From: a virus
Virus record (IMG/VR): IMGVR_UViG_3300042453_003033
Location: 4,469-68,468 of that record
Length of the DNA stretch: 64,000 bases
Direction: 5' to 3' (one strand)
Each line of letters starts with the position of its first letter. Positions within the stretch are counted from its first letter, which is position 1. The notes beneath the pieces are model-generated. The model was given only the letters and a program-made list of their open reading frames with translations. It was not told where the DNA came from and searched no databases. Shown piece after piece: positions 3,698 through 37,355 of this stretch. Made by a program: the position numbers and the translations under genes.

Positions 3698-4548
3698 TGA
3701 TGGCACAAAGAGTACATTATTGGAGTTGTAGCAGATTTGCGGACTGGGTTCGTGGTAAACCTAAAGCAGGCGCACTAACAAGTGAAGGCTGGCGTGATTG
3801 GCGTATTGAAGCCAAAACAGCACACCCAGTGCGTTATTGGATAGCTGAGGAAGCACTAGATAGAATTCAGAATTTTATCTGGTGGCCGTTAGATAAACTA
3901 TACGATCTAAAGTACTATATCAACAATCGGTACATTACTAAGACTCATTGTCTCACCTCTCATCCCAGGGACATCAAACCTGGACAGTGGTGTGATGTTG
4001 GTAATCGCTTTTTACCATGTTTATTCAATGAACTAGTAGATTTTGTTGAAATTGAACAAGCATGGTGGAATATTGCCTGGGACAAAGAAGCAAGAGCAAA
4101 GTATGCTGCACCTTTTTGGTCTAGTGGTTGGTTTCGATGGAGAACTTGGCGCAGTCCAGAAGCAGGACTTGACAGTCTTAAATGGCAAAGCGAACTTGTT
4201 TGGAAAGAAGATGAAGTGGGCGAAAATACTGGCATGATAGGTAAGCCCACTTACCAGGCAGAAAAAGCCCAGGAAATCCTAGCACTATACAAGTGGTGGA
4301 CCGAAGTTTATTCAAATCGTCCAGATGTACATGATGCTAGTGGTTGGACTGAATACTGCAAGCGTAAACGTGAAATCAATGGTGACAAAGATTTAGATTT
4401 TTTCTGCGATGACAAGACACCGAAAGAACTGAAAGAATTTGGAGATTGTGCTCTTAAAAAGAGTCATGAAATCGAAGAAGCATATGAACGAGAAGATGAA
4501 GAAATGATGATTCGTCTTATAAAAATTCGTAATTCACTTTGGACTTAA
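3697..4548 (+). CDS. Trp-rich hypothetical phage protein
   Basis: Long ORF; start moved to ATG 3697 after AAGGA. Confidence 0.75.
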   Translation: MMAQRVHYWSCSRFADWVRGKPKAGALTSEGWRDWRIEAKTAHPVRYWIAEEALDRIQNFIWWPLDKLYDLKYYINNRYITKTHCLTSHPRDIKPGQWCDVGNRFLPCLFNELVDFVEIEQAWWNIAWDKEARAKYAAPFWSSGWFRWRTWRSPEAGLDSLKWQSELVWKEDEVGENTGMIGKPTYQAEKAQEILALYKWWTEVYSNRPDVHDASGWTEYCKRKREINGDKDLDFFCDDKTPKELKEFGDCALKKSHEIEEAYEREDEEMMIRLIKIRNSLWT

Positions 4549-19721: not shown

Positions 19722-20543
19722 ATGGACTACTATAAAATTTTAAACATAGAAGAAAATGCATCAAAAGATGAAATAAAAACTGCATATAGAAAACTAGCAT
19801 CTAAACATCATCCAGACCGTGGCGGTGACACTGCTACCTTTCAAAACATTCAACAAGCATATGATGTATTAAGCGATGATAGAAAACGTGCAGAATACGA
19901 CGCTAGTAAACACGGCGCGTTTGCTGGGCAGGGTCAACCATCAATGGAAGACATTTTTAATTCTTTTGGTTTTAGTTTTGGACAAAATGATATTTTTTCA
20001 CAGTTTATGCGAAATCAAAGGCGTAATCCAGATATCAAAACATCAATCAGTATAGAATTAAAAGATACTCTATATGAAACAACTAAATTTGTTAACATTA
20101 GAACTAAAAACAATGAAAACAAAACATTAGAAATTAAAATACCACGTGGTATCAAATCTGGAACTGTGATGAAATTTGGTGGTGGCGGTGAGACCATTTT
20201 TCCAAATGCCCCACCAGGAGATTTATACATTTCTATTAATGTTGAGGAGAATCAAAAGTATGTTCAACGTGGCCTAGATTTAGAAACCGTGTTAGATGTA
20301 AATTGTTTTGATGCCATTTTAGGTTGTGAGATGGAAATAAAAACTCTATCTGACAAAGTATTTTCTATAAAGATTCCATCAAATACTCAACAAGCTACTA
20401 GATTTAAAATACCAGGAGAAGGACTATATGAATTTCAAAAAGACATAAAAGGTAGTCTTTACATAAAAATAAATGTCAATATACCCACTCAACTAACATC
20501 TGAGCAATTAGATTTAGTTAGAAAAATAAAACTTTCTCAATAA
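19722..20543 (+). CDS. DnaJ/CbpA-type co-chaperone
   Basis: J domain with HPD, G/F region and C-terminal domain; no Zn finger. Confidence 0.92.
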   Translation: MDYYKILNIEENASKDEIKTAYRKLASKHHPDRGGDTATFQNIQQAYDVLSDDRKRAEYDASKHGAFAGQGQPSMEDIFNSFGFSFGQNDIFSQFMRNQRRNPDIKTSISIELKDTLYETTKFVNIRTKNNENKTLEIKIPRGIKSGTVMKFGGGGETIFPNAPPGDLYISINVEENQKYVQRGLDLETVLDVNCFDAILGCEMEIKTLSDKVFSIKIPSNTQQATRFKIPGEGLYEFQKDIKGSLYIKINVNIPTQLTSEQLDLVRKIKLSQ

Positions 20544-20551
20544 ATATTCTT

Positions 20552-22846
20552 ATGCTACAAACACAACCAGAAATTGATAAAATAATCGAAGAAGCCACAA
20601 AGCTGGCTATTAAGAAGAATCATGAATATGTAACACTTGAACACTTATTATATGGTTTACTTACACATGACATTTTTAAAGAATTAATAGTAAAACTGGA
20701 AATTAAAGGCGATGATCTTCTGACTGAGTTAGAAGACTATATAGATTCACAAAGTTATCTGATTAGCAATGGATATGATATTGTTCCTAAAAAGACACAT
20801 ACTCTAGAGCGTGTGTTTAATCGAGCATTTACCCAGGTACTTTTTAGTGGCAGATCAAACTTACAAATTATTGATATTTACTTAAGCATTTGCGCCGAAG
20901 ACAAAAGTCATGCTAGGTATTTCTTACTGAAATATGGCTTAGATAAAGATAAAGTAATCAATTACTGGAATAATACATTTGTAGAACAAAAGCCCAAGAA
21001 AAAAAGCAAGTCACATCTAGATACTCTGTTAGAGTCTTATTGTGACAACTTATCCGAGATGGCTAAAAACGATAAACTAGATCCAGTAATAGGCAGAGAA
21101 TCTGAAATAGAAGAAATTGTAAATGTGTTAGCTAAACGTAATAAATGCAATGTATTAATGGTAGGTGACCCGGGTGTGGGTAAAACTGCTATCGCCGAAG
21201 GACTAGCAGTTAAGATAGTTCAAGGTGAAGTGCCAGAATATCTTAAAAACTATACAGTTTACAGTTTAGACATACCTTCGTTGCTCGCGGGTAGTAAATA
21301 TCGCGGTGAATTTGAAGAAAAATTAAAGCATGTAATTAAAGCACTTGAGTTAAAGGGTGATACCTTACTTTTCATAGATGAGGCGCATCAGATGCGCGGT
21401 GCTGGTAGTGGATCAAATAGCAATGTGGATTTTGCAAACATGATTAAACCTGTATTGTCCAAGGGCAATATAAAAATTATTGCTAGCACTACATGGGAAG
21501 AATACAATCAAAGTTTTGAAAAAGATCGTGCTCTGATGCGTAGATTTTATAGATTAAACGTTGATGAACCAAGTATCGAAACTGCAAAGAAAATAATATT
21601 CGAACTAAAAGATATATTTGAAGATTTTCATGGTGTTGAAATAAACAGTGACTCAATTGTTGCTGCTGTAGAATTAAGTGCCAAATATCAAACTGATAAA
21701 AAATTACCTGATAAAGCAATTGATCTAATAGACACAGCATGTGCGAAAGCTAAGGTATTAGGAAGTAATTTAATTATTAAGAAGAGTGATATCATCAGTG
21801 TATTAAGTCAATATATCAAAGTGCCTATTGAACAATTAGATTCGCAAAACAATACTGTGGTTGAAAATATAGAATCAATTATAAAGTCAAAACTATTTGG
21901 TCAAGATCATGCTGTAAACACAGTGCTTGAAAAAATTTATGTAAGCAGAGCAGGACTAAAATCGTTGAATAAGCCTGTAGGTAGCTTTTTATTATCTGGA
22001 CCAACTGGTACAGGGAAAACAGAACTTGCCAAACTATTAGCAGAGAATTTAGGCATGAAATTAATTCGCTATGATATGAGTGAATATCAAGAAAAGCATG
22101 CGCTAGCTAAATTAATTGGTGCACCGCCTGGCTATGTAGGTTATGACGATGGAAATATTGGCGGTGGGTTGTTAATTAGTGATATTGAAAAAAATCCAAA
22201 CGCTGTTGTGCTATTTGATGAAATCGAAAAAGCACATCCCGATGTGGCGCATATTTTGTTAACTATGATGGACGAAGGTATTGTAACAAGCAGTAATGGC
22301 AAAAAAGCTAATTGTAGACAGTGCATTTTGTTGCTTACTAGTAATTTGGGCGCCGTAGAAAATGAGGCACACAACATAGGTTTTGGAACAAGTCTTGAAA
22401 AAACTAACGAGGATGATCGTGTTATCAAAGAATTCTTTAAGCCTGAATTCAGAAATAGATTAGATGCAATTGTAAAATTCAATAAGTTATCAAAGGATAA
22501 TATTAAATTGATCGTGAACAAATTTATAAAAGAACTAAATGATTTGTTACTAGATAAGGAAATATCAATATCAGTTACCGAAGATGCCGTTAATCATATC
22601 ATCGAAAAAGGCTATGATAGTAAAATGGGCGCCAGACCTTTATCTAGAACAATTTCTGATTTAATCAAAGTTCCACTTAGTAAAAAAATACTTTTTGAAA
22701 AAATTGCCAGATGCAATGTGAAAGTGATATACGATGGAACAATTTGCTTTGAAATTGAACCGAAGTCTTATACAATATTCAAAACCAATAACCTAGTGGA
22801 CGAAAATGGATACATCATTCTGGACGCAATTAAATCAAATTGTTAA
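20552..22846 (+). CDS. clpA: ClpA/ClpB-family AAA+ chaperone
   Basis: Clp N domain; two Walker A motifs (GDPGVGKT, GPTGTGKT); LPDKAIDL; FKPEFRNRLD. Confidence 0.9.
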   Translation: MLQTQPEIDKIIEEATKLAIKKNHEYVTLEHLLYGLLTHDIFKELIVKLEIKGDDLLTELEDYIDSQSYLISNGYDIVPKKTHTLERVFNRAFTQVLFSGRSNLQIIDIYLSICAEDKSHARYFLLKYGLDKDKVINYWNNTFVEQKPKKKSKSHLDTLLESYCDNLSEMAKNDKLDPVIGRESEIEEIVNVLAKRNKCNVLMVGDPGVGKTAIAEGLAVKIVQGEVPEYLKNYTVYSLDIPSLLAGSKYRGEFEEKLKHVIKALELKGDTLLFIDEAHQMRGAGSGSNSNVDFANMIKPVLSKGNIKIIASTTWEEYNQSFEKDRALMRRFYRLNVDEPSIETAKKIIFELKDIFEDFHGVEINSDSIVAAVELSAKYQTDKKLPDKAIDLIDTACAKAKVLGSNLIIKKSDIISVLSQYIKVPIEQLDSQNNTVVENIESIIKSKLFGQDHAVNTVLEKIYVSRAGLKSLNKPVGSFLLSGPTGTGKTELAKLLAENLGMKLIRYDMSEYQEKHALAKLIGAPPGYVGYDDGNIGGGLLISDIEKNPNAVVLFDEIEKAHPDVAHILLTMMDEGIVTSSNGKKANCRQCILLLTSNLGAVENEAHNIGFGTSLEKTNEDDRVIKEFFKPEFRNRLDAIVKFNKLSKDNIKLIVNKFIKELNDLLLDKEISISVTEDAVNHIIEKGYDSKMGARPLSRTISDLIKVPLSKKILFEKIARCNVKVIYDGTICFEIEPKSYTIFKTNNLVDENGYIILDAIKSNC

Positions 22847-24670: not shown

Positions 24671-24697
24671 ACGGGACCATTGGTCCCGTTTTTATTT
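24671..24697 (+). terminator. rho-independent terminator
   Basis: ACGGGACC-att-GGTCCCGT followed by TTTTATTT. Confidence 0.85.
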
Positions 24698-24733
24698 GTA
24701 CAGATAAATATAATATTAACAATTAATTTATCT

Positions 24734-25834
24734 ATGTATGCATATGAGCTTTATGAGCAAATTAAGCCACAAATAGTTGTGACTTACCCTGGTAGATTTC
24801 AACCATTTCATCAAGGCCATGCCGGTGTATTTGAAATACTGCAAAAAAGATTCGGCAGTGAAAATGTCTATATTTTAACTAGCAACGATACCAGCAGTGC
24901 AAAGAGTCCATTTAGCTTCAGTGACAAATATCAATTAATGACAGCGGCTGGTGTGCCTGGTGATAGAATTATTGAAACAAACAAGATGTATGAACTGCCA
25001 GCAGATTTTGATCGAAAAAATACTATCTTTATAACAGTTGTTGGTGGACCAGATGCCGATCGATTAAATCCTGATAGCTATACTAAACGCGATCAAAAAG
25101 ATGCAGATGGCAATGTAATAAAGCCTGCAGGCAGTCCTAGTTACTACCAAACTTTTAAAGAAAAAGAACAACCTGTTACGGCTGATAAACATGGTTATGT
25201 TATAGTAATTCCAGAATTACAAAAAAGAATTACGATTGGTGGTGAATCATACGATGTTAGTCATGGCACAGATGCAAGAAATTTGTGGAATAAAATTCGT
25301 AATAAACCAGAGTTAAGAAAAGAGTTTCTAACAAAGATGTATAAACGTCCTCATATGGAATTAGGTAACATTTTTGATAAGATTCAACAAACAACATCGG
25401 AAGATATTGCTGGCGTAAGTAATGATACTGCAAGTCCAATTAGCGGAAAAATTTACGAAGATATAGATACGATTGATAATCTAAAACAATCAATTAGAAA
25501 ATTCATACCTATCGCAATGCGTGTGTTAGATATTTCCAATTTGCCTAAAATAAAATTTAAGCTAAAAGTAGAAACTGGCGATGGTGTTCAATCTAGTTTT
25601 GGTCAGTTTATTCCAAGAAAGAATACCATATTAGTTGGTTGTTCAAACAGACATCCAGTAGATATACTTAGAACTTTAGCACATGAACTAGTTCACTATA
25701 AACAACACTTAGATAAAGAGCTAGACGCACAATCTGGCAATACTGGTAGTGACGAAGAAAACGATGCAAATGCTATGGCAGGAGTTATAATGCGATATTA
25801 TAATAAACAGAACCCAGCAGCAATTAACGATTAA
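24734..25834 (+). CDS. HxGH nucleotidyltransferase-like domain fused to HExxH metallopeptidase-like domain
   Basis: PGRFQPFHQGH at the N-terminus; RTLAHELVH...E..ANA.AG at the C-terminus. Confidence 0.75.
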   Translation: MYAYELYEQIKPQIVVTYPGRFQPFHQGHAGVFEILQKRFGSENVYILTSNDTSSAKSPFSFSDKYQLMTAAGVPGDRIIETNKMYELPADFDRKNTIFITVVGGPDADRLNPDSYTKRDQKDADGNVIKPAGSPSYYQTFKEKEQPVTADKHGYVIVIPELQKRITIGGESYDVSHGTDARNLWNKIRNKPELRKEFLTKMYKRPHMELGNIFDKIQQTTSEDIAGVSNDTASPISGKIYEDIDTIDNLKQSIRKFIPIAMRVLDISNLPKIKFKLKVETGDGVQSSFGQFIPRKNTILVGCSNRHPVDILRTLAHELVHYKQHLDKELDAQSGNTGSDEENDANAMAGVIMRYYNKQNPAAIND

Positions 25835-25863: not shown

Positions 25864-28800
25864 ATGAATAGCAAACAATTTTTAAAAGAGGGTTTTATCG
25901 AGGACGCTCACGAAGCACATATGGATCATGAGGTTCAAATGGCACGTGTAGATTGTTATTACGCCGCCGAACATGCAATAGTTTTGCATAAATTACTACG
26001 TAACATATCTGAAGAGCAAGGCCTAGAAGGTTGGGTTGCTTCAAAAATTACATTAGCAAATGACTATTTAAAATCAGTTAGAGAACATCTTGAATATCAA
26101 ATGATGAACACAGATGCTGATGAGGAAGATTTTCTTCCTCTAGCAGAAGGATTAACTTCCGTAAAAAAAAAGTTAAGTGAGGCAGCAGACAGCAAAGATA
26201 TTCAAGAATTTGAACGTGGCCCATGGTATATCATAGTCAAGGGTGAAGTAGTTCCTGAAGACGATGGCAGCCCAAGAAAATTTAATTGGTTAAATGCTGC
26301 TAAAGTGTTCTTTAGAAAAATGTTGGACGATGATCCAACCACAGCAGCACAATTAAAAAGTGAATATGACAACGCTACTGATAAAAAGTCAGTAGTTTAC
26401 TATAGTAAAAAACTCCCATCTGTATCATCAGATAATTCTTCTCTAGAAGAATCAGAAAAAAGACCTGGTCTGTGGGCTAATATAAGAGCAAAGCGTGAAC
26501 GTATAAAAGCCGGTAGTGGTGAACGTATGCGCAAACCAGGTAGTAAAGGTGCACCTACCAATAAAGACTTAAAGAGCATTCGTGCTAGTTCAGAGTCGAT
26601 GCATGAAGATGGATTAAACTTAGATCAACAAAAATCAGATTTTAAAAACCCACTAAATTTGAATCTTGGTTCTGTTCGAGGTTTGCCTATTAATGCTGGT
26701 ATTCAATCTACTCAAACTCCGCAATCATATTCAAATCGTCCTGGCGCTACTGGTATGGGATTGCAACCATCGTTAAGTATTGGTAATCCAGAGAGTGGTC
26801 CATTTGCTCAAATTAGTAAGCAAGGTGGAATGATAGGTTATAAAAAGACATTTGAAGGTTTGGGACCAGAACAAAAACGTGTTGGTCAACTTGGTCCAAC
26901 TGAAAATGTTAAGAAAAATAGTGGTGCCAGAGGTAAACTAGTTGGTGCCAATGAAAGTGTAGAGCAAGGTGTGGCGGAAGGCTCTGATAGCCTTAGAGGA
27001 ACCAACGAACCAAAGAAAAAAGATGCATGGGGTGAGGGTTATTGGGTAGGACATAGACGGGAAGATAGAGATTGCCCATATCCACCTGGTTCATTTGACG
27101 CAGAAATGTGGGAACTTGGTTATCACGAAGGTAACAAAGATAGAAAAAATGAAATGACTGGTCGTGTGGCGGAAGGCAAGTGGTCGCACAATGCTATCAC
27201 AGGACAGAAACTTGACCCAAGAACAGGTGAGATTCTACCAGTTAAAGAAAAGCCATTAACAATGAAGCAAATGTTTGCACCGAAGGCACAACCTAAACTA
27301 ACATTGGATGATGTGTGGCGTAAAGTAGAGAATGTAGTATCCCAAATCTATCCAGACGGTGATCCAAACGATTACATGGCTCCATGGTTAGAAAAGCATG
27401 GCATTAGAGATTTCAAGATCGGTGAAATATTAGACCGTGCCGCAAAGAAGAATGGCTACAAAGATATGTATGATTATTGGAATAGCATGGGCGAGCAAGG
27501 TGTGGCGGAAGGCTCGGAAGATTTAGTTCAGATTGAATACTGGAAACAAGATTCAATAGAAGCAGGTAGATGGGTTAAAACACAACCAATGCCAAGAGAA
27601 GTCGCAGAAGAACTACTACATTCACATCCAGGTGCCTTTTCAAGAGTTGAGATTGTTGATGTAAAGCAAGGTGTGGCGGAAGATATTGCTAGCACAAGAC
27701 GAGAAGTAAATCTCAAGAAGAAAATAGACAAAGGTATCGCTACTCCTGAACAGAAAAAAGAATATCAAGAACTAAAAGCAAAGAATATGGGACGAAAACT
27801 TGATAAAAAGCAAGGTGTGGCGGAAGGCTATAAAGAGCCTACTACTGCTGCCGGACATGCTAAAATGGCAGCTAAGATTAAGAAAATGTTAGACGACACA
27901 TTGGCAGACAGAGGCGACAGGCACGGTAATCCAGATCCACAACGACTAGCCAGTGCATATGAATATCACACGCAAAAAGCTAAAGAGAAATCGCAAGGTG
28001 TGGCGGAAGGCTCATTAAAAGAAGACGAATACGATAAGTATGAAACTGGTAAAATGGGCCAGGAAGAAGCAGTTACTGCTATGTTTACAAGACTTGCCCG
28101 TCAAGGCATTGATCCTATCGATATGATTGCAAACAGATTCGGTTGGAGCACATACGAACTTGACGATTTGGCACAGCAGCAAGGTTTTAAAAATACCGCA
28201 GAATGGTTGAATAGTTTTGATCAAGGTGTGGCGGAAGGCTGGAAAGAAAAAGCAGCAGGCGCCGCATTAGCAGGAGCAATGGCTGCTAGTCCAACACATG
28301 CAGGCTTTGGAGGTGAGTTAGCAGGTGCCGTAGCACAAGGTCTGGGCCGTGGTGTTGTATCTGGGGCAATTGGCCCAAAAGTGTTTGAGGAAAGAAATAA
28401 ACGAGATTTAGAGTTTGCCGAACAGATTCCAGACGAGGCCGATAAAGCAAGATATCTAAAAGCAGTTAAAAAAATCATGCACTCTAGAAATATGTCACTA
28501 GGTAGTAATGCTATGATGGGTGCAAATGCTGTGGATGAAATAGTCTTTAAGAAATTTAAGAAAAAATTGTCCGAAAAATACAATATACCATTGACGCAGG
28601 TAAAAGAACAAGGTGTGGCGGAAGGCTCAAATGATTTATATCAAAAAGCCATTCGCAAGTATGCCCAACAAGTAGCAAATGATTATCTAAACGGCGGAAA
28701 CGAATATCTTTATGGTGCCAACAAGTTTGATGCTGAAATGTTCGGTGTAAGCCAAGAAAAAGCAAATAAAGACTTTAAGACATGGTTTACTATGATTGTA

Positions 28801-29868
28801 CGTTCTCAAGCAGTAAGACCACGACGAGGTGTGGCGGAAGGCTCAGAGTCTAAAATTTCTAAGTGTGCTTCTTTAGCGGCAAAGTATTTTAATAGTGAAG
28901 GTCTTCAAAGACAATATGATATTGACGAGTATATTAAAAACAACGCAGGGAATGATCCAATTGTCAATAAATGTGCTTCTTTAGCGGCAAAGTATTTTAA
29001 TAGTGAAGGTCTTCAAAGACAATATGATATTGACGAGTATATTAAAGCAAATGCCAAGCAAGGTGTGGCGGAAGGCTATTCACTAAAGAAAACTAATGTT
29101 GAAAAAACATTTCATCCAGGTGACCCAGAGGATTTCGGCAGTGTTGATATGACACAAAAAGATACAGATTACGAAATTATTAATAATAAAACAGGTCAAG
29201 TAGTAGGTACTGCAAGTTGGACTACTAATGATTATTTTGGACCAGGGGCAATAAAGATTACCATGAAAAATGGTGCTACACGTTATCTTGATATTAAGAA
29301 TAGTGACAAGGGTAATCCACAAAGTGCCTTCAATCGTTTTGTAAAAGATCCAAGTACTTCTAAAAAATATAAAGAGCAAGGTGTGGCGGCAGGCTATGTC
29401 AACGATGCAAGTGAAGGTACAAAATTCATGATAGTTTATAACAAACATCATCCTAATCCAGCGGCTCATGGTAAGCCTGTTACCGGCGATGGAAAGCCAT
29501 GGATAATAACTGCCACTGATAGGAGAGCAGCATTAGACAAAGCGCATGAATATTTTGTACGATCACAAACTGTATCGTCATTTCGTGGGTATGTAGATGC
29601 AGTTCCTGTTGAGCAAGATGTGGCTGAAGGCTTCAGTGATGTTGTTAAGGGCATCAAGCGTAAAGTAGCAGGTAAGGACAATCCCAAAGATGTAGAACAT
29701 ACTTATGCTCGTATTGCCCGTAGAGATATAGAAGATGCTAACAAACTTAATAATCAAGCAGCATATGATGCTAGAGATAAATCAACAAAGCGTTGGAAAA
29801 AGGTCAATAAAGTTGTCAACAAGCAAGGTGCGGCGGGAAGCAAAGATAAATCTGAAAAGAAATCTTGA
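25864..29868 (+). CDS. 1334-aa mosaic polyprotein of cassettes separated by QGVAEG repeats
   Basis: Long ORF; 13 in-frame repeats; AGGA RBS and TAAATA upstream. Confidence 0.85.
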   Translation: MNSKQFLKEGFIEDAHEAHMDHEVQMARVDCYYAAEHAIVLHKLLRNISEEQGLEGWVASKITLANDYLKSVREHLEYQMMNTDADEEDFLPLAEGLTSVKKKLSEAADSKDIQEFERGPWYIIVKGEVVPEDDGSPRKFNWLNAAKVFFRKMLDDDPTTAAQLKSEYDNATDKKSVVYYSKKLPSVSSDNSSLEESEKRPGLWANIRAKRERIKAGSGERMRKPGSKGAPTNKDLKSIRASSESMHEDGLNLDQQKSDFKNPLNLNLGSVRGLPINAGIQSTQTPQSYSNRPGATGMGLQPSLSIGNPESGPFAQISKQGGMIGYKKTFEGLGPEQKRVGQLGPTENVKKNSGARGKLVGANESVEQGVAEGSDSLRGTNEPKKKDAWGEGYWVGHRREDRDCPYPPGSFDAEMWELGYHEGNKDRKNEMTGRVAEGKWSHNAITGQKLDPRTGEILPVKEKPLTMKQMFAPKAQPKLTLDDVWRKVENVVSQIYPDGDPNDYMAPWLEKHGIRDFKIGEILDRAAKKNGYKDMYDYWNSMGEQGVAEGSEDLVQIEYWKQDSIEAGRWVKTQPMPREVAEELLHSHPGAFSRVEIVDVKQGVAEDIASTRREVNLKKKIDKGIATPEQKKEYQELKAKNMGRKLDKKQGVAEGYKEPTTAAGHAKMAAKIKKMLDDTLADRGDRHGNPDPQRLASAYEYHTQKAKEKSQGVAEGSLKEDEYDKYETGKMGQEEAVTAMFTRLARQGIDPIDMIANRFGWSTYELDDLAQQQGFKNTAEWLNSFDQGVAEGWKEKAAGAALAGAMAASPTHAGFGGELAGAVAQGLGRGVVSGAIGPKVFEERNKRDLEFAEQIPDEADKARYLKAVKKIMHSRNMSLGSNAMMGANAVDEIVFKKFKKKLSEKYNIPLTQVKEQGVAEGSNDLYQKAIRKYAQQVANDYLNGGNEYLYGANKFDAEMFGVSQEKANKDFKTWFTMIVRSQAVRPRRGVAEGSESKISKCASLAAKYFNSEGLQRQYDIDEYIKNNAGNDPIVNKCASLAAKYFNSEGLQRQYDIDEYIKANAKQGVAEGYSLKKTNVEKTFHPGDPEDFGSVDMTQKDTDYEIINNKTGQVVGTASWTTNDYFGPGAIKITMKNGATRYLDIKNSDKGNPQSAFNRFVKDPSTSKKYKEQGVAAGYVNDASEGTKFMIVYNKHHPNPAAHGKPVTGDGKPWIITATDRRAALDKAHEYFVRSQTVSSFRGYVDAVPVEQDVAEGFSDVVKGIKRKVAGKDNPKDVEHTYARIARRDIEDANKLNNQAAYDARDKSTKRWKKVNKVVNKQGAAGSKDKSEKKS
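26965..29841 (+). repeat. interspersed 18-bp direct repeat CAAGGTGTGGCGGAAGGC, 13 copies
   Basis: Copies start at 26965, 27160, 27496, 27667, 27811, 27994, 28222, 28609, 28825, 29059, 29377, 29614 and 29824; a further degenerate copy is at 30107. Confidence 0.95.
28864..29046 (+). repeat. exact 75-bp direct duplication, period 108 bp
   Basis: CASLAAKYFNSEGLQRQYDIDEYIK is encoded twice by identical DNA (28864 and 28972). Confidence 0.9.
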
Positions 29869-29878
29869 AAGAACAATC

Positions 29879-30808
29879 ATGAGATTAAATGAGTTTGCAA
29901 GCGGAGGCGGCGATGATCGCAACGATTTACAACTTTACCTGAATGTTGCTTTAAAGTTAAAGATGAAGAAATTCAAGCCGGAAACGATGCGCGCCATAAT
30001 TACAAAGAAGATGTCAGAGTTAGTCAATGTCGTTGATGCTGATAAAGTAGATTGGGCATATCAAATGCTTCGTAAAGAACAGAGACTATCAAATATGTTA
30101 GATCAACACGGTGTGACAGAAGGTGAAATCGTAAAGGGTACGTTTGGACAAAAATTTAAACCCAATTTGGGCAGAACAGTACAAACATCTCCTTATGAAC
30201 ACAGACCAGATATAGATATACCACAGTATGACCCTGTAAGAAAAACCAACTGGATCAAAGGAATCAGTAAAGAAAACAATAAAGAACCTTATGATCATTT
30301 TGAACTAGATCAAACTAAACCAAATATTGCTCATATAATAGGTGTTACTAAAGATGGGCTGCAAGTAAAAATCAGCACATCGAATCTAAAACTAGCTGAA
30401 ATTCTTGTTGATCTTTACAATCGTGGTGGCTTTACTGATGCCGATATAGAAAAAATACCAATGAAATCTCCTGAAAGAGAAAAGCCAAAACTTAAATTAG
30501 TAAAATCAGACGACATTGAAGAAGATACTACATCACCATCAGAAAAAGTAGAGGCATATGGCTATGTATATAACAATCGTGATCAACGTATAGTGTGGCG
30601 TAAAATATTTTCAAGTGAAGATGAAGCAAATCGCTGGGCAGATCGTCGCAATGCCACAGTGTTAGGAATTAAACCGTTAAAACCATCAGATAAAATATCT
30701 GAAACCAGTGCAGGCAGTGTAGCAACTGTCGTGAATCCAAAAATGAAAGATCGTTCAAAAGTAGGCACACTATTTGGTGGAACATATAAACAGCGGAAAG
30801 ATAAATAA
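29879..30808 (+). CDS. mosaic hypothetical protein, possibly head-packaged
   Basis: Probable start MRLNEF; contains a degenerate HGVTEG repeat. Confidence 0.7.
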   Translation: MRLNEFASGGGDDRNDLQLYLNVALKLKMKKFKPETMRAIITKKMSELVNVVDADKVDWAYQMLRKEQRLSNMLDQHGVTEGEIVKGTFGQKFKPNLGRTVQTSPYEHRPDIDIPQYDPVRKTNWIKGISKENNKEPYDHFELDQTKPNIAHIIGVTKDGLQVKISTSNLKLAEILVDLYNRGGFTDADIEKIPMKSPEREKPKLKLVKSDDIEEDTTSPSEKVEAYGYVYNNRDQRIVWRKIFSSEDEANRWADRRNATVLGIKPLKPSDKISETSAGSVATVVNPKMKDRSKVGTLFGGTYKQRKDK

Positions 30809-32859: not shown

Positions 32860-35800
32860 ATGAATTTGTACGATTTTTTTTCTAACAATAAAAAATTAAA
32901 CATTAAAGAAAATATTCCTACCGCAAATGAAGTAGAAAAACAAGTCGTTAATGAAAATTTACATAAATGGTTTAAAGAAAAATGGGTTCGTTTTGGCCCA
33001 GATGGAAAAATACGCGGTGATTGTGCTCGAGGTGATGATAGCGAAGGCAAACCAAAATGTTTACCACGTGCTAAAGCACATAGCCTAGGGAAAAAAGGTC
33101 GTGCCAGTGCTGCTGCCAGAAAACGTCGTGAGGACCCAAATCCAGAACGCAGTGGATCAGCAATAAATGTTGCAACAAAAAGTAAAAGAAAAATAGACGA
33201 ACAGACTGGTAAAGCAGCATCTATCAAATCAGAAAGCATAAAATCACTAGCTGAACAAATTGGACCTAGAGGCGAGACGGTGCGATTACCACCAACTCCG
33301 GCAGATGCTAATTTTGAACGATATCTTAGCACATTACCAAAAGCATCTGATCCTGCGTCGGCACAATCTCAACCTCAACGTAGAGGTACAATGCCAAGGG
33401 TTGGTACAGATTTTTACTATGTGCCTGGTGCTGCACCGAACGCGAGAAGTCAAGCAGCGGCAGTTGCGTCACCTGTCTCATCACCTCAAATAGTCGGCAG
33501 CACTGGCGCAGGCGCTAGAGCAGCAAGGGCTGCGGATTCGGCAGCGGCGGCCAGAGTAACACCACCTATCAATCAACCTCCACGCAGAGTCTCACCACCT
33601 AAAGTTGATACGGATTCTTATTCTGTGCAAGATGGTAATATCAAACCAGATGCAAGACATCAAGCAAGAATAGCATCTCAGGCTATCCAGCGAGACACAG
33701 AGGCACAAAAACAAGCTGCCAGAGAAAAAGAATATGCCGCCTCAGTAGATAGTGCAGATGCTGAATTAGGCACTGCTATAAAAGCAAATGCACAAGCTGC
33801 CAGAGAAAAAGAATATGCTACTAGTTCAGATCAAGAAGATACTGATTTAGCTACTGCAATGAATAAAATGGCTGCCGATCTTGCAAAAACCGCGTCAACA
33901 GATGATCAATTAGCCGCTGCTGCGAATGTAGCAACAGGTGGTTATTCGGGTGGCAGAGGTCAACCTACTACAGTATCAACTCCTACTTCTTATACATTAC
34001 GTCGCGGTGACACATTAAGTCAACTAGCATCAAAATTTGACACAACAACACAAGAACTGATGCGATTAAATCCAGACATAAAAGATCCAAATAAAATATA
34101 TGCAGGGATGACATTAAATGTGTCGAAACCAACAGATGCTGCTACGGGACAAACAATAGCTCCAGATCAAAGTAGTGCGGAAACACAAAGACTTGATAGA
34201 CAGCCAGTAAAAATTCGAACTGCTACGGGACAAACAATAGCTCCAGATCAAAGTAGTGCGGAAACACAAAGACTTGATAGACAGCCAGTAAAAATTCGAA
34301 CTGCTACTGGACAAACAATAGCTCCAGATCAAAGTAGTGCGGAAACACAAAGACTTGATAGACAGCCAGTAAAAATTATGCCTGGCACAGTAGGAACTTC
34401 TTCTGGCCAACTTACAACGTTGGATGGTACACCATGGTTCACTGGATATCCACCAGAACAAGAAATACCTGTTAGCCCACCATCCATACGTCCCGGAGAA
34501 AAAAGAGCGGATCGTGCTGGAGGATCAGCAGACTTAGCGGGTGATATTGGACGCGGAGAATTTTCTGCTGCTGGTAAACCATCCGTCAGACCAGATAGAG
34601 TAGTCCCACCTAGCAGTGCTGGTTCAGCATCATCAACTCAAACAGGATCAGGATTAAGACTGCCGTCTCAATCAGGATCAGGATTAAGACTACCACCAGC
34701 TCAAACAGGTGCAGCAAAACCACCCGCTGCTGAACCAACGTCACCGCCTAAACCAGGAGCAGCAAAACCACCCGCTGCTGAACCAACGACACCAGTTAAA
34801 CCAGGAGCAACAAAACCACCCGCTGCTGAACCAACGACACCAGTTAAACCAGGAACAACAAAACCACCCGCTGCTGAACCAACGACACCAGTTAAACCAG
34901 GAGCAACAACAGATGATCAAGCTAAATTAAGACAAAATTTGACACCCGGGCAACTAAAATATGCCGGTGATGCTGATTTAAGTAGACCAGCTACAGGCAC
35001 AAATCGTGTTATCGAGAAAATGCCATTACCAGATTCAGATAGAATTGTAAAAGCATTCTCGACTGCGGAAGCTTCAAAAAATCCAAATTTGGCATATGGT
35101 GACGCCATAGATAAAAATGGTAACATTGTTAGTACTGTAAGAGCCAATAGAGGAATTAAAATTGGTCGAAGATTACTAACTGCTGAACAGTGGAGTGAAA
35201 AAGAGTTAGGTCAAGCTAAAAAGCTATCTAATATGACAATATCTGAAGTTCAGCAATTTCAAAAATACAGAGAAGCCAATCATAAGAATGCTAATGCTGT
35301 AGGTGCTTATCAATTTGTTGGTGACACTCTTGATAATCTTGTAAAGAAACTAGGTCTTGATCCAAAAACAACAATATTTAATCAAAAAACTCAAAATTTA
35401 TTGCTTAGCGAACTTACAAAAGATAATGCTAACACTTTAAAAAGAAATGGTATTTTACCAGATATAGTAAATATTTACATGGCACATGCTGTTGGAGGTC
35501 GTGGTGCTGTAGGTATATATGACGATTTACGCAAAGATTCAAATAAAACGGTTATTGATTCAATAATGGACACGTGGGAACAAAATAATCCAAGAGATGC
35601 TGGCAATCCAAGAAAAGTGGCAATGCAGAGAAAAATTTTATTAGCTGGTAATCCTCACATGACCGATATGAGAATTGGTGAGTACTATGACTATCTTAAA
35701 AACGCCACTGAAGGTAAAACAAGAAATTCAGCATATACACAAAGATCAAACGCCGCACAGCAAAGTCTCGGATTACGTGACGAATCAGGTCGACCAAATG

Positions 35801-36921
35801 AACAAGAGATTAGGAAATATCAAAAAAGTAATGGCCTAAGACAGACTGGCGAAATTAATTGGCAAACAATTCATCATGTTAATAAAAATGTAGCAAGACA
35901 ACCCGTAAGAGAAAATTTTGAATTTAGTCCTGAACAAGAAAAATGGCTAGGGAACGCAAATCGTCAAGATCCATACATAATAGCCAGAATGCCTGGACCT
36001 AAGCCACCAGCCGAATATTTTACAAACCCAGAAGATCAACGTGTTGCACAACAAATAGTTAGATCACAAGATTTAGCAAACAAATGGCAAGAATTTAGAC
36101 AAGGTGGTTCACTGGCAAGCAAAGCAGTTAGTAGAATACCAGGTGTAAGTCAAGCAGCAAACGTTGTAGATATCGGAGCAAATCTAGCTAAAGGTGATTT
36201 GCCTGCCGCTGGTAGACAAGCGTTAGGCATGATACCTGCCGCTAGACCAATTAATTTAGCATTACAAGCAGGTGATGTCGCAAGTAATCTTCAACAAGGT
36301 AATTTAGCTGCCGGAGCAAAAGGTGCATTAGGTATTGCAGCAGGTACCGGAAGTGAAACAGCTGGTCGAGCACTTAAAGGATGGAATTTATTTAATAGAC
36401 TACAAAAAACTACACAGTCATTAGCTGACAAGCAAAATCAACCAACAATGGAAAACACTTGCCCACATTGCGGTGGTTTATCAGTAGATGATGAAATGTT
36501 AGCTGAGAAGAAAGATGCTTGCTATCACAAGGTTAAAAGTAGATATAAAGTATGGCCCAGCGCATATGCCAGTGGTGCTTTAGTAAAATGTCGTAAAAAA
36601 GGCGCTAAAAACTGGGGTAAATCAAAAGCCAATGAAGATAGCAATCTATACTTCAATATATCAGGCACCGACAAGAAAACTTTAATATCCGAGTTTAAAC
36701 TAAATCGCAATAATAAAGGATGGTATTTAAAAGAAGATTCACCATCATCTGTTAAACTAGATGCAATACGCGCATTTGGTATGCCTTTAAGCGAAGAAGA
36801 ATTAAACCCAACGGCATATAGCGGCACTGCTGCAACAATAGGTGTAGATAATCCTAGAAGTCCAGTTGGTTCGGTTCCAAAAAGCCAAAGAATAAATAGT
36901 AAACAAAAGGGTAAAAAATAA
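32860..36921 (+). CDS. 1353-aa mosaic protein with LysM, lysozyme-like and peptidoglycan-binding-like segments
   Basis: LysM YTLRRGDTLSQLA...LNPDIKDPNKIYAG (~33991-34122); AEAS...AVGAYQF..TL and YMAHAVG; IRKYQKSNGLRQTGEI. Confidence 0.8.
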   Translation: MNLYDFFSNNKKLNIKENIPTANEVEKQVVNENLHKWFKEKWVRFGPDGKIRGDCARGDDSEGKPKCLPRAKAHSLGKKGRASAAARKRREDPNPERSGSAINVATKSKRKIDEQTGKAASIKSESIKSLAEQIGPRGETVRLPPTPADANFERYLSTLPKASDPASAQSQPQRRGTMPRVGTDFYYVPGAAPNARSQAAAVASPVSSPQIVGSTGAGARAARAADSAAAARVTPPINQPPRRVSPPKVDTDSYSVQDGNIKPDARHQARIASQAIQRDTEAQKQAAREKEYAASVDSADAELGTAIKANAQAAREKEYATSSDQEDTDLATAMNKMAADLAKTASTDDQLAAAANVATGGYSGGRGQPTTVSTPTSYTLRRGDTLSQLASKFDTTTQELMRLNPDIKDPNKIYAGMTLNVSKPTDAATGQTIAPDQSSAETQRLDRQPVKIRTATGQTIAPDQSSAETQRLDRQPVKIRTATGQTIAPDQSSAETQRLDRQPVKIMPGTVGTSSGQLTTLDGTPWFTGYPPEQEIPVSPPSIRPGEKRADRAGGSADLAGDIGRGEFSAAGKPSVRPDRVVPPSSAGSASSTQTGSGLRLPSQSGSGLRLPPAQTGAAKPPAAEPTSPPKPGAAKPPAAEPTTPVKPGATKPPAAEPTTPVKPGTTKPPAAEPTTPVKPGATTDDQAKLRQNLTPGQLKYAGDADLSRPATGTNRVIEKMPLPDSDRIVKAFSTAEASKNPNLAYGDAIDKNGNIVSTVRANRGIKIGRRLLTAEQWSEKELGQAKKLSNMTISEVQQFQKYREANHKNANAVGAYQFVGDTLDNLVKKLGLDPKTTIFNQKTQNLLLSELTKDNANTLKRNGILPDIVNIYMAHAVGGRGAVGIYDDLRKDSNKTVIDSIMDTWEQNNPRDAGNPRKVAMQRKILLAGNPHMTDMRIGEYYDYLKNATEGKTRNSAYTQRSNAAQQSLGLRDESGRPNEQEIRKYQKSNGLRQTGEINWQTIHHVNKNVARQPVRENFEFSPEQEKWLGNANRQDPYIIARMPGPKPPAEYFTNPEDQRVAQQIVRSQDLANKWQEFRQGGSLASKAVSRIPGVSQAANVVDIGANLAKGDLPAAGRQALGMIPAARPINLALQAGDVASNLQQGNLAAGAKGALGIAAGTGSETAGRALKGWNLFNRLQKTTQSLADKQNQPTMENTCPHCGGLSVDDEMLAEKKDACYHKVKSRYKVWPSAYASGALVKCRKKGAKNWGKSKANEDSNLYFNISGTDKKTLISEFKLNRNNKGWYLKEDSPSSVKLDAIRAFGMPLSEEELNPTAYSGTAATIGVDNPRSPVGSVPKSQRINSKQKGKK
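34141..34377 (+). repeat. tandem repeat, 81 bp x ~3
   Basis: ATGQTIAPDQSSAETQRLDRQPVKIRT; near-identical DNA. Confidence 0.95.
34708..34908 (+). repeat. tandem repeat, 48 bp x ~4
   Basis: GA(A/T)KPPAAEPTTPVKP units. Confidence 0.95.
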
Positions 36922-37355
36922 TGGACGAATTAGCAAAAGCACTGAAAATAGCATTCAGTACCGAATTTAGTTTTTATCTAAAATCTCATTACTACCATTG
37001 GAATGTAGAAGGTCCAAACTTCGCACAATATCATAAATTGTTCAGTAAAATATATGAAGAAGTTTATGGTAGTATTGATGCATTTGCTGAAAATATAAGA
37101 AAATTAGGCAGTTACACTCCTGGTAGCTATACAAGACTAAGTATGCTATCTCAGATAGAGGACGAACTGACCGTTCCTCCAGCACTTGATATGATCAATG
37201 ATTTATTAGGTGATAGTGAAAAATGCATTAAAATTTTCAAAATGGTATATGATTTAGCCGAACGTGAAGGCGAACATGGATTAAGTAATTTTCTAGCAGA
37301 ACGCATGGATTCACATAAAAAACACAGCTGGATGCTCAGCGCAACACTCAAATGA
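36921..37355 (+). CDS. dps: Dps/ferritin-like DNA protection protein
   Basis: HYYHWNVEGPNF.QYHKLF..IYEE....D..AE.IR.LG; HKKHSWML. Confidence 0.92.
   Translation: MDELAKALKIAFSTEFSFYLKSHYYHWNVEGPNFAQYHKLFSKIYEEVYGSIDAFAENIRKLGSYTPGSYTRLSMLSQIEDELTVPPALDMINDLLGDSEKCIKIFKMVYDLAEREGEHGLSNFLAERMDSHKKHSWMLSATLK

Follow-up and report, generated by a model that had tools for sequence, protein, structure and literature searches.

What is a stretch that resembles ribosome modulation factor (RMF) doing in the middle of a 1,334-residue viral protein? The locus lies in 64,000 nucleotides (nt) of the IMG/VR virus record IMGVR_UViG_3300042453_003033 (positions 4,469 to 68,468 of that record). We call this whole stretch the window and give all coordinates in it unless another source is named. 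The element in question spans 26983-27159 and is flanked by two copies of a short repeat that reads QGVAEG or a close variant, here termed the linker. A prediction made from the letters alone had seen it as an RMF-like gene captured between repeats and delivered to host ribosomes. We find that the stretch is an exchangeable cassette. It probably belongs to a polyprotein that is targeted to the capsid, cut by the prohead protease, and ejected as separate modules, and it would enter the host as something other than a working RMF.

The RMF-like stretch is an exchangeable cassette

The cassette and its boundaries lie within one long open reading frame (ORF), as follows.

25864..29868, forward strand: polyprotein P0001, 1,334 amino acids (aa), an ORF uninterrupted on translation.
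26965..26982, forward strand: linker repeat 1 (QGVAEG), the upstream cassette boundary, with an exact copy of the 17-mer CAAGGTGTGGCGGAAGG at 26965-26981.
26983..27159, forward strand: cassette very likely of the Rmf/CrpP fold (Pfam, hhalign, PDB profile, AF2, Foldseek, and VIA-align); the full module extends to 27174 (64 residues).
27025-27159, forward strand: predicted fold core of the cassette, with helix 1 (residues 15-25), a loop containing CPYPPGS, and helix 2 (residues 38-59).
27160..27177, forward strand: linker repeat 2 (GRVAEG), the downstream cassette boundary, a degenerate copy sharing 13 of 17 nt with the 17-mer.
27496, 27667, 27811, 27994, 28222, 28609, 28825, 29059, 29377, and 29614, forward strand: further linker copies of 17 nt with 0 to 2 mismatches, from a repeat search (region 27496..29630).

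Position 26983 lies 1,119 nt (373 codons) past the start of P0001, so the 59 codons from 26983 to 27159 are in frame. They read SDSLRGTNEPKKKDAWGEGYWVGHRREDRDCPYPPGSFDAEMWELGYHEGNKDRKNEMT, which includes the peptide of the original prediction exactly. Neither cassette boundary has a start or stop codon. An internal GTG start in the linker, behind an AAGG, was considered and rejected because of the spacing of 0 to 1 nt between AAGG and GTG. In the other contexts of the cassette, the downstream linker reads GRVIE or GRVME.

Comparison of fourteen related viral loci places the ends of the shared DNA on the linkers. Against locus L014, the window matches at 42 of 103 nt upstream of the cassette (unrelated), at 103 of 103 and 99 of 103 nt within it, and at 53 of 103 nt past linker 2 (again unrelated). 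Against L009, the upstream side is likewise unrelated (49 of 103), and the sequences are identical from linker 1 on. The reverse holds for L011, where 100 of 103 nt agree up to linker 1, identity ends just past it, and a different module of 139 aa follows. In all, the cassette unit of about 200 nt occurs in five neighborhoods: the window and four others (L009/L010, L012, L014, and P0003, a second polyprotein). Its upstream neighbor is a 67-aa module in L009 and L010 and yet another module in L012, where the cassette is 73% identical. Module order and content vary across the window, L009, L011, L012, L014, and P0003, and the order differs between the window and L009 despite 95% identity in their best segment.

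Contigs from independent lake sequencing runs bridge the arrangement of the window without differences (X6 record 16 and X5 record 12), and another contig (X13 record 1) carries about 180 extra bases between linker 1 and the cassette, as in L009. Contig depth in the lake runs rises several-fold at every linker, which indicates that many other sequences in those samples share the linker alone. Apparent "joints" in the contig comparison whose sides amounted to 20 to 25 nt on the repeated linker were discounted as repeat artifacts.

The RMF-fold stretch is thus a true exchangeable cassette, with recombination breakpoints exactly on the linkers. The original prediction had located a peptide at 26983-27159 between repeats, and this is borne out, in frame within the 1,334-aa ORF. 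Its proposal that a small, normally free-standing gene sits there without start or stop codons agrees with the relatives P0006, P0008, and a coding sequence (CDS) of phage Cr30, all free-standing and 47 to 65 aa long. The cassette model that it favored is upheld by breakpoints exactly at the repeats and by the recurrence of the unit in five neighborhoods.

The cassette very likely has the Rmf/CrpP fold

Against the Pfam family RMF (PF04957), the 59 aa score 27.2 bits (E 4.1e-6) over positions 12-52 of the 53 in the hidden Markov model (HMM). The score is 26.1 bits in a six-frame search, in which E. coli alone among the controls gave a signal, and 20.7 bits when the full-length protein is scored. 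A phmmer search of 1.84 billion representative proteins returned seven matches at E ≤ 1e-3, namely, P0001 itself, the polyprotein P0003 (98% identical across the cassette), and five proteins at 41 to 49% identity (P0004-P0008). All five of these relatives lie above the PF04957 cut-off, at 31.2 to 53.4 bits; three of them (P0005, P0006, and P0007) also pass the NCBIfam model NF041886, and P0007 passes NF041887. Two of the five are free-standing (47 and 59 aa), and three have the domain twice. Free-standing relatives include P0006, P0008, and, in the T4-like Caulobacter phage Cr30, a CDS of 65 aa (AGS81047.1). The latter emerged from a tblastn search of cultured phages that gave matches at E 0.8 to 9 only; it was found there at E 5, yet it scores 35.7 bits against Pfam RMF and proved to be a genuine family member.

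Profile comparisons point the same way. With hhalign, a three-row cassette alignment matches six PF04957 members over 46 columns with a probability of 99.0% and an E value of 3.3e-18. A four-row profile searched against 177,635 PDB sequences gave three matches at E ≤ 10, all of them RMF (6h4n_v, 0.03; 4v8g, 0.041; 2jrm, 0.087). Several PHROGs of 50- to 62-aa phage proteins, e.g., phrog_13106, fall in the same family neighborhood. Other searches added no members: single-sequence phmmer of the cassette against PDB sequences gave nothing at E ≤ 10, the CrpP-family profiles NF033696 and NF041856 gave no match at E ≤ 1, word-indexed protein searches found no new relative with the single cassette and only the profile's own seeds P0006 and P0008 with the profile, and a profile scan of viral contigs returned only four already known cassette loci.

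AlphaFold2 (AF2), given a seven-row alignment, predicts helices at residues 15-25 and 38-59 joined by the CPYPPGS loop, with a predicted local distance difference test score (pLDDT) of 81.5 and a predicted template modeling score (pTM) of 0.64. In Foldseek, RMF chains take ranks 1, 3, and 6 of 41 for this model; it superposes on two ribosome-bound E. coli RMF chains, 9iot_y (root mean square deviation, 1.9 Å over 44 columns) and 6h4n_v (1.8 Å over 42 columns). In VIA-align, the first of 48,161 representative chains is RMF on the 70S ribosome (4v8g_AV; Z 5.5, 50 of 53 residues), the sole chain with Z ≥ 5. An RMF cluster at rank 6 in the ESM Atlas (score, 0.85) was treated as a lead and not taken as evidence.

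Several observations count against the assignment. The Pfam score misses the gathering cut-off of 27.9 bits by 0.7 bit, and all NCBIfam cut-offs are missed as well: 17.6 of 40 bits for NF041887 (Rmf_like_phage), 13.5 of 28 for NF041886 (Rmf_CrpP_fam), and 13.6 of 40 for the RMF equivalog NF011162. Five of the six PF04957 members used in hhalign are bridge relatives found with the cassette itself. The PDB profile E values of 0.03 to 0.09 and the Foldseek E values of 0.76 (rank 1) to 3.5 are not significant alone, and the VIA-align Z of 5.5 is below the level that the tool calls safe for helical models. The rows of the AF2 alignment come from the RMF family, and the network may remember RMF; a model made without an alignment was poor (pLDDT, 53.3) and was not used. 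Scores under every curated cut-off, a small domain, and weak structural statistics would fit a chance match of a short motif-like peptide to RMF. The lines that concur are independent, however (Pfam at E 4.1e-6, hhalign at 99%, a PDB profile search that matched nothing but RMF, and two structure searches headed by RMF), and a chance match is extremely unlikely. No line is strong singly for so small a domain, but with the sequence and structure lines taken together the cassette is very likely a member of the Rmf/CrpP fold. The resemblance to RMF first noticed in the letters therefore finds support by profile (27.2 bits against the cut-off of 27.9 in Pfam; 99.0% in hhalign) and in the predicted structure, a two-helix model with a Cys-Pro-Tyr loop.

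The cassette is most likely not a working RMF

According to a cryo-EM preprint on the 100S particle (10.1101/382572), RMF binds the backbone of 16S ribosomal RNA (rRNA) via Arg3, Lys5, Arg8, Arg11, and Arg15 and touches domain 4 of protein S1 via Glu10, Arg37, and Gln39. We mapped these residues through the HMMER profile alignment and an alignment of the cassette with its relatives. One of the three rRNA-binding residues that map is kept (Arg8 corresponds to Lys11), and the other two are Asp14 (for Arg11) and Glu18 (for Arg15). For Arg3 and Lys5 the alignment gives no counterpart, as it does not cover the low-confidence N-terminal segment, where disorder is predicted. All three S1-contact residues are changed (Glu10 to Lys13, Arg37 to Ala40, and Gln39 to Met42). 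Glu18 is invariant among the closest relatives of the cassette. The isoelectric point (pI) of the module is 5.3, with 11 Lys or Arg and 14 Asp or Glu residues, and that of the relatives is 4.3 to 4.9, whereas a hand count of the aligned stretch of RMF gives 8 Lys or Arg against 4 Asp or Glu. The fold-defining pattern G-Y-x-x-G...CPY...W..G-Y is present in the cassette.

Because Glu18 is invariant and because the module and its relatives are acidic where the RMF stretch is basic, the residue comparison places the cassette most likely in an acidic "EG...CPYPxGS" branch of the family and not among working RMFs. With rRNA-binding arginines of RMF replaced by Asp and Glu, another partner in the host or phage is to be expected, protein rather than rRNA. 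Judged from its residues, we expect that a freed cassette would bind such a protein.

The original prediction had suggested a delivered effector that acts on host ribosomes. In its fullest form, a functional RMF would be injected, bind the 30S subunit at the anti-Shine-Dalgarno pocket, and silence or dimerize host ribosomes. RMF does top the structural and PDB sequence matches, the Pfam family bears its name, and the fold-defining pattern is there. The amount delivered need not be prohibitive either: a T4 head holds about 1,000 internal protein molecules (PMC3012670), and small lake bacteria may hold few ribosomes, so that the stoichiometry would not be impossible. Set against this are the rRNA- and S1-contact residues, mostly changed (one of three and none of three kept), with Glu18 invariant in the closest relatives, the acidic module and relatives compared with the basic RMF stretch, and an equivalog score of 13.6 bits for a cut-off of 40. 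Moreover, one RMF would be needed per ribosome, and the phage's own translation would be blocked too. We consider a functional RMF very unlikely, and this part of the original prediction is probably wrong.

One linker joins a large pool of small modules

P0001 begins with an N-terminal region of 372 aa; about 12 small modules of 48 to 129 aa come after it, with QGVAEG-type linkers between them. Ten of the 11 modules other than the cassette match no Pfam family at E ≤ 0.001, and Pfam and PHROG searches found no peptidase domain inside P0001. When up to three mismatches are allowed, the window holds 13 copies of the 17-mer, 7 of which are exact, compared with 0.03 expected from shuffles; 12 are in P0001 and one is in the next ORF. 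Linker repeat 2 is outside this count because it has 4 mismatches.

The linker uses the rare codons GTG and GCG, as do all of the further copies listed above (GCT at 29614); elsewhere in the ORF GTG makes up 8% of Val codons and GCG 6% of Ala codons. Even loci that share an N-terminal domain of just 54 to 67% identity retain these codons. At least 120 viral contig stretches contain an exact copy of the 17-mer. Among the matches listed, 161 of 162 copies of the 17-mer lie in a QGVAEG frame that stays open over at least 100 aa, and 125 ORFs contain 163 internal modules with a median length of 79 aa (quartiles, 63 and 139) that form 133 clusters, 111 of them singletons. An hmmsearch at E ≤ 1e-3 found no second RMF-like module among these 163, so the RMF-fold cassette is a rare member of a very large pool. 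Glu is conserved best across the linker variants, and in 172 of the 215 copies among the matches listed the residue after QGVAE is Gly. In the literature searched, we found no phage paper that contains the linker peptide, and searches of polyvalent-protein and jumbo-phage surveys turned up no arrangement of small modules and linkers of this kind.

One copy, at 29377-29393, reads QGVAAG through a change of GAA to GCA; if Glu is the cleavage residue, its two flanking modules would stay fused. Module 8 (28840-29073, forward strand) is an internal tandem duplication in which KCASLAAKYFNSEGLQRQYDIDEYIK is present twice, and it has a weak, below-cut-off Pfam match to a Kiwa KwaB-like family (E 5.9e-4; 20.3 bits). 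In the N-terminal region, residues 200-237 (26461-26574) match phrog_16028 at E 3.4e-18 and are 67 to 87% identical to CDSs of about 55 aa that stand alone in cyanopodoviruses, pelagiphages, and Limnohabitans phage DC33. This stretch looks like a second small gene fused into P0001, here without QGVAEG linkers. When the whole of P0001 was compared with 50,697 phage records by tblastn, residues 200-257 alone matched, so no cultured phage in that collection has P0001.

The polyprotein is probably delivered through the head and cut at the linkers

The features that bear on delivery and cleavage are the following; a slash in the sequences below marks a putative cut.

25864..25890, forward strand: N terminus of P0001, MNSKQFLKE with G as the next residue; resembles T4 capsid-targeting peptides and ends in an L-x-E protease motif.
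24680..25834, forward strand: upstream gene with a cytidylyltransferase-like N terminus and a C-terminal HExxH (HELVH) metallopeptidase-like domain, by Pfam and PHROG.
29879..30808, forward strand: next ORF, with the capsid-targeting-like start MRLNEFASGG and a related site, QHGVTE/G, at 30107-30123.

According to PMC9026906, the first ten residues target T4 internal proteins to the prohead, and the protease gp21 cuts after L/I-X-E. T4 IPII and IPIII start with MKTYQEFIAE/A. Only two real ORFs in the window have capsid-targeting-like starts, P0001 and the next ORF. A related genome of 199 kb, G002, encodes a 1,246-aa QGVAEG polyprotein together with a T4-type head module (portal, 344 bits; Peptidase_S77, 85.7 bits; Gp23, 325.6 bits). 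The motif Q[GA]VxE is found in 4 of the 283 ORFs of G002, and its presumed scaffold protein has two such sites (KQAVVED and KQAVIET); KQAV[VIY]E recurs in 24 of 63 related scaffolds. Of the 43 full-length distinct N termini listed for 71 related capsid proteins, all have a propeptide that closes with L-x-E, its middle residue variable, apart from a single one that reads LLSE.

The T4-like start, the L-x-E and QGVAE sites, and the Peptidase_S77 and head genes of G002 led us to propose import into the prohead and cleavage after Val-Ala-Glu. The single T4-like N-terminal peptide (MNSKQFLKE/G) would carry the polyprotein into the prohead, where a gp21-type (Peptidase_S77) prohead protease would cut after the Glu of each linker, (K or E)QGVAE/G. 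The freed modules, about a dozen, would then be small internal head proteins, ejected with the DNA as T4 IPI to IPIII are. Delivery into the host is plausible by analogy, given the T4-like N terminus and the protease-like linkers.

The T4-type head module of this phage clade (locus L025, G002 76000-95000, and loci L044-L123) is abundant in metagenomes, with 425 scaffold relatives in IMG/VR. The capsid-protein N termini of this clade are highly conserved and have several L-L-E and L-x-E sites.

A number of points speak against cleavage and delivery through the head. A search of the 68-kb fragment, about 18% of a genome, found no capsid or protease gene, but the control of that search gave no signal. 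The P3 residue of the linker is Val, where the published sites have Leu or Ile, and the match to the targeting peptide spans 9 residues only, without a statistic. The polyprotein gene sits among genes for DnaJ, ClpB, Dps, and a polymerase, a setting of chaperones and replication. Conservation of the linker at synonymous sites implies a constraint on the DNA, and this could be explained by recombination without proteolysis.

This last point leads to the view that the polyprotein is never cut. It would then be a giant multidomain ("polyvalent") protein, its linkers would act only as flexible spacers or as in-frame joints for recombination, and the RMF-fold domain would work while still attached. 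Phage polyvalent proteins of 2 to 15 domains are known, and some proteins are packaged unprocessed, e.g., the N4 virion RNA polymerase (PMC5512222). With the linker kept at synonymous sites and the breakpoints on it, a DNA-level role alone could explain linker conservation. Such a role does not extend to the amino acid variants of the linker, which retain Glu at P1, followed by a small residue at P1' (the Gly of 172 in 215 listed copies). Nor does it extend to the related motifs in the scaffold of the relative, which use different codons and show no cassette exchange, or to the N terminus of the polyprotein, which itself ends in L-K-E/G. The modules are also tiny and mutually unrelated, as the lack of Pfam families in 10 of 11 indicates, like separate T4 internal proteins. 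An uncut polyprotein is rather unlikely on this evidence. Cleavage might alternatively fall to the HExxH domain encoded just upstream, acting inside the head or after injection. Zincin-like metallopeptidases are, according to PMC5512222, the commonest domain of polyvalent proteins and are proposed to release the others. The HExxH domain adjoins the polyprotein in the window, L009, and L016, and in L021 it is a separate 131-aa ORF with a capsid-targeting-like start (MRAVEFLVE). Its match to peptidase families is weak, though (phrog_87, E 3.6e-5; DUF3920, E 0.03), and cleavage after the Glu of an aliphatic-x-Glu motif is the signature of the T4-type serine prohead protease and no known zincin specificity. 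The same type of motif, moreover, occurs in the capsid propeptide and scaffold of relatives. We regard processing by this domain as quite unlikely. Cutting of a capsid-targeted polyprotein by the prohead protease remains the reading that we consider probable.

The surrounding DNA is best read as a fragment of a freshwater jumbo phage

The source record is a 68-kb viral sequence with a CheckV completeness of about 18%, and the window has a GC content of 35.7%. Its family-B DNA polymerase is 39 to 45% identical to those of Phosso, Atu_ph07, CBB, and their relatives, phages of 350 to 490 kb. The DNA of the window is also present in 20 lake-water metagenome runs from 20 studies, of which four may be where it came from; no RNA runs are among the sequencing runs listed with it, and no tRNA genes were found in the window. 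The window is best read as part of the genome of an uncultivated jumbo phage from fresh water whose head is of the T4 type.

In the gene upstream of the polyprotein, the N-terminal part matches Pfam CTP_transf_like with 31.2 bits, the metallopeptidase-like part has the phrog_87 (metallo-protease) and DUF3920 matches given above, and the L009 orthologue reads HELVHYKQH. The orthologue of the next ORF in L009 (8474-10366 of that locus) has several hundred extra residues between GVTE sites. The same swap logic, with a second linker type, GVTE/G, seems to operate in this ORF.

Further upstream, at 19722-22846 (forward strand), the phage encodes DnaJ (DnaJ and DnaJ_C domains) and, next to it downstream, a double-AAA chaperone of the ClpB/ClpA type with 764 aa. 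A second giant protein, P0002 (1,353 aa; 32860-36921, forward strand), contains a LysM domain, a DUF5872/phrog_727 module, and two kinds of repeats, namely, three exact 27-aa tandem repeats and Pro-rich PAAEPT repeats. At its N and C termini P0002 is similar to the QGVAEG polyproteins of L016 and L021, but it has no QGVAEG linker itself; its start, MNLYDFFSN...NIKE/N, is possibly another targeting peptide. A Dps/ferritin-like gene (36921-37355, forward strand) adjoins the polyvalent genes in the window, a linkage kept in L013, L016, and L022.

Relation to known systems and significance

The closest known counterpart of the cassette is RMF of gammaproteobacteria (PF04957; NF011162; 6h4n_v, 4v8g, and 2jrm), which is likewise about 55 to 65 aa long with two helices and a Cys-Pro-Tyr loop. 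The motifs G-[YF]-x-x-G and W-x-x-G-[WYF] are conserved in both, and the predicted cassette structure superposes on RMF at 1.8 to 1.9 Å. Unlike RMF, the cassette is embedded in a 1,334-aa ORF and is acidic rather than basic, with Asp or Glu for two of the three mapped rRNA arginines, S1-contact residues that are not kept, and a loop spacing shifted by one residue on each side. The small proteins of the Rmf/CrpP family (P0004-P0008) share its "EG...CPYPxGS...W..G" signature, its acidity, and 41 to 49% of its residues, but they are free-standing or tandem two-domain proteins, whereas the cassette lies between protease-like linkers. CrpP, found on integrative and conjugative elements (ICEs) and plasmids of Pseudomonas (NF033696), shares the wider fold family going by NCBIfam family names; unlike it, the cassette is not on an ICE and has no NF033696 match. 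The enzymatic role of CrpP is disputed. Rmf/CrpP-fold mini-proteins are common on phages, plasmids, and ICEs, and to our knowledge none but RMF has an agreed function. The RMF-fold domain is a known small fold in a new, embedded form; NCBI already curates a phage Rmf-like family.

The protein that hosts the cassette recalls two kinds of phage proteins. Polyvalent proteins, as described by Iyer et al. (2017; PMC5512222), combine many unrelated domains in one polypeptide, are mosaic between relatives, and are predicted to be packaged, injected, and then processed into units. That paper has the word "ribosome" twice, and neither the passage nor the reference examined is about RMF. P0001 departs from these proteins in its very small units (median, 79 aa among the matches listed), in its one near-identical, DNA-conserved linker, and in having no internal peptidase domain, the likely processing enzyme being the prohead protease. 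With T4 IPI, IPII, IPIII, and Alt, it shares an N-terminal targeting peptide of about ten residues ending in aliphatic-x-Glu. T4 internal proteins are small, diverse, and non-conserved; they leave the head together with the DNA, and one of them acts against a host restriction enzyme (PMC3012670 and PMC9026906). They are encoded by separate genes, however, each with its own targeting peptide, whereas here one peptide would carry a dozen modules. The host protein of the cassette thus differs from both kinds in its tiny modules on a nucleotide-conserved linker, probably separated by the prohead protease.

Tentatively, and short of calling it probable, we propose that the 17-nt linker is both an in-frame recombination joint and a prohead-protease site, and that the RMF-fold cassette is a captured small gene that may have been redeployed as an injected binder of a host factor. 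An Rmf/CrpP cassette in a probably injected polyprotein places this fold among the early-acting, host-directed proteins of phages. The context outweighs the domain: one linker joins at least 133 unrelated clusters of small modules over at least 120 viral stretches. Should the linker double as a protease site, these phages could shuffle many tiny effectors and deliver them together with a single targeting signal. Such a dual-role linker, if true, would be a protein-level analogue of the integron cassette array in a large clade of lake jumbo phages.

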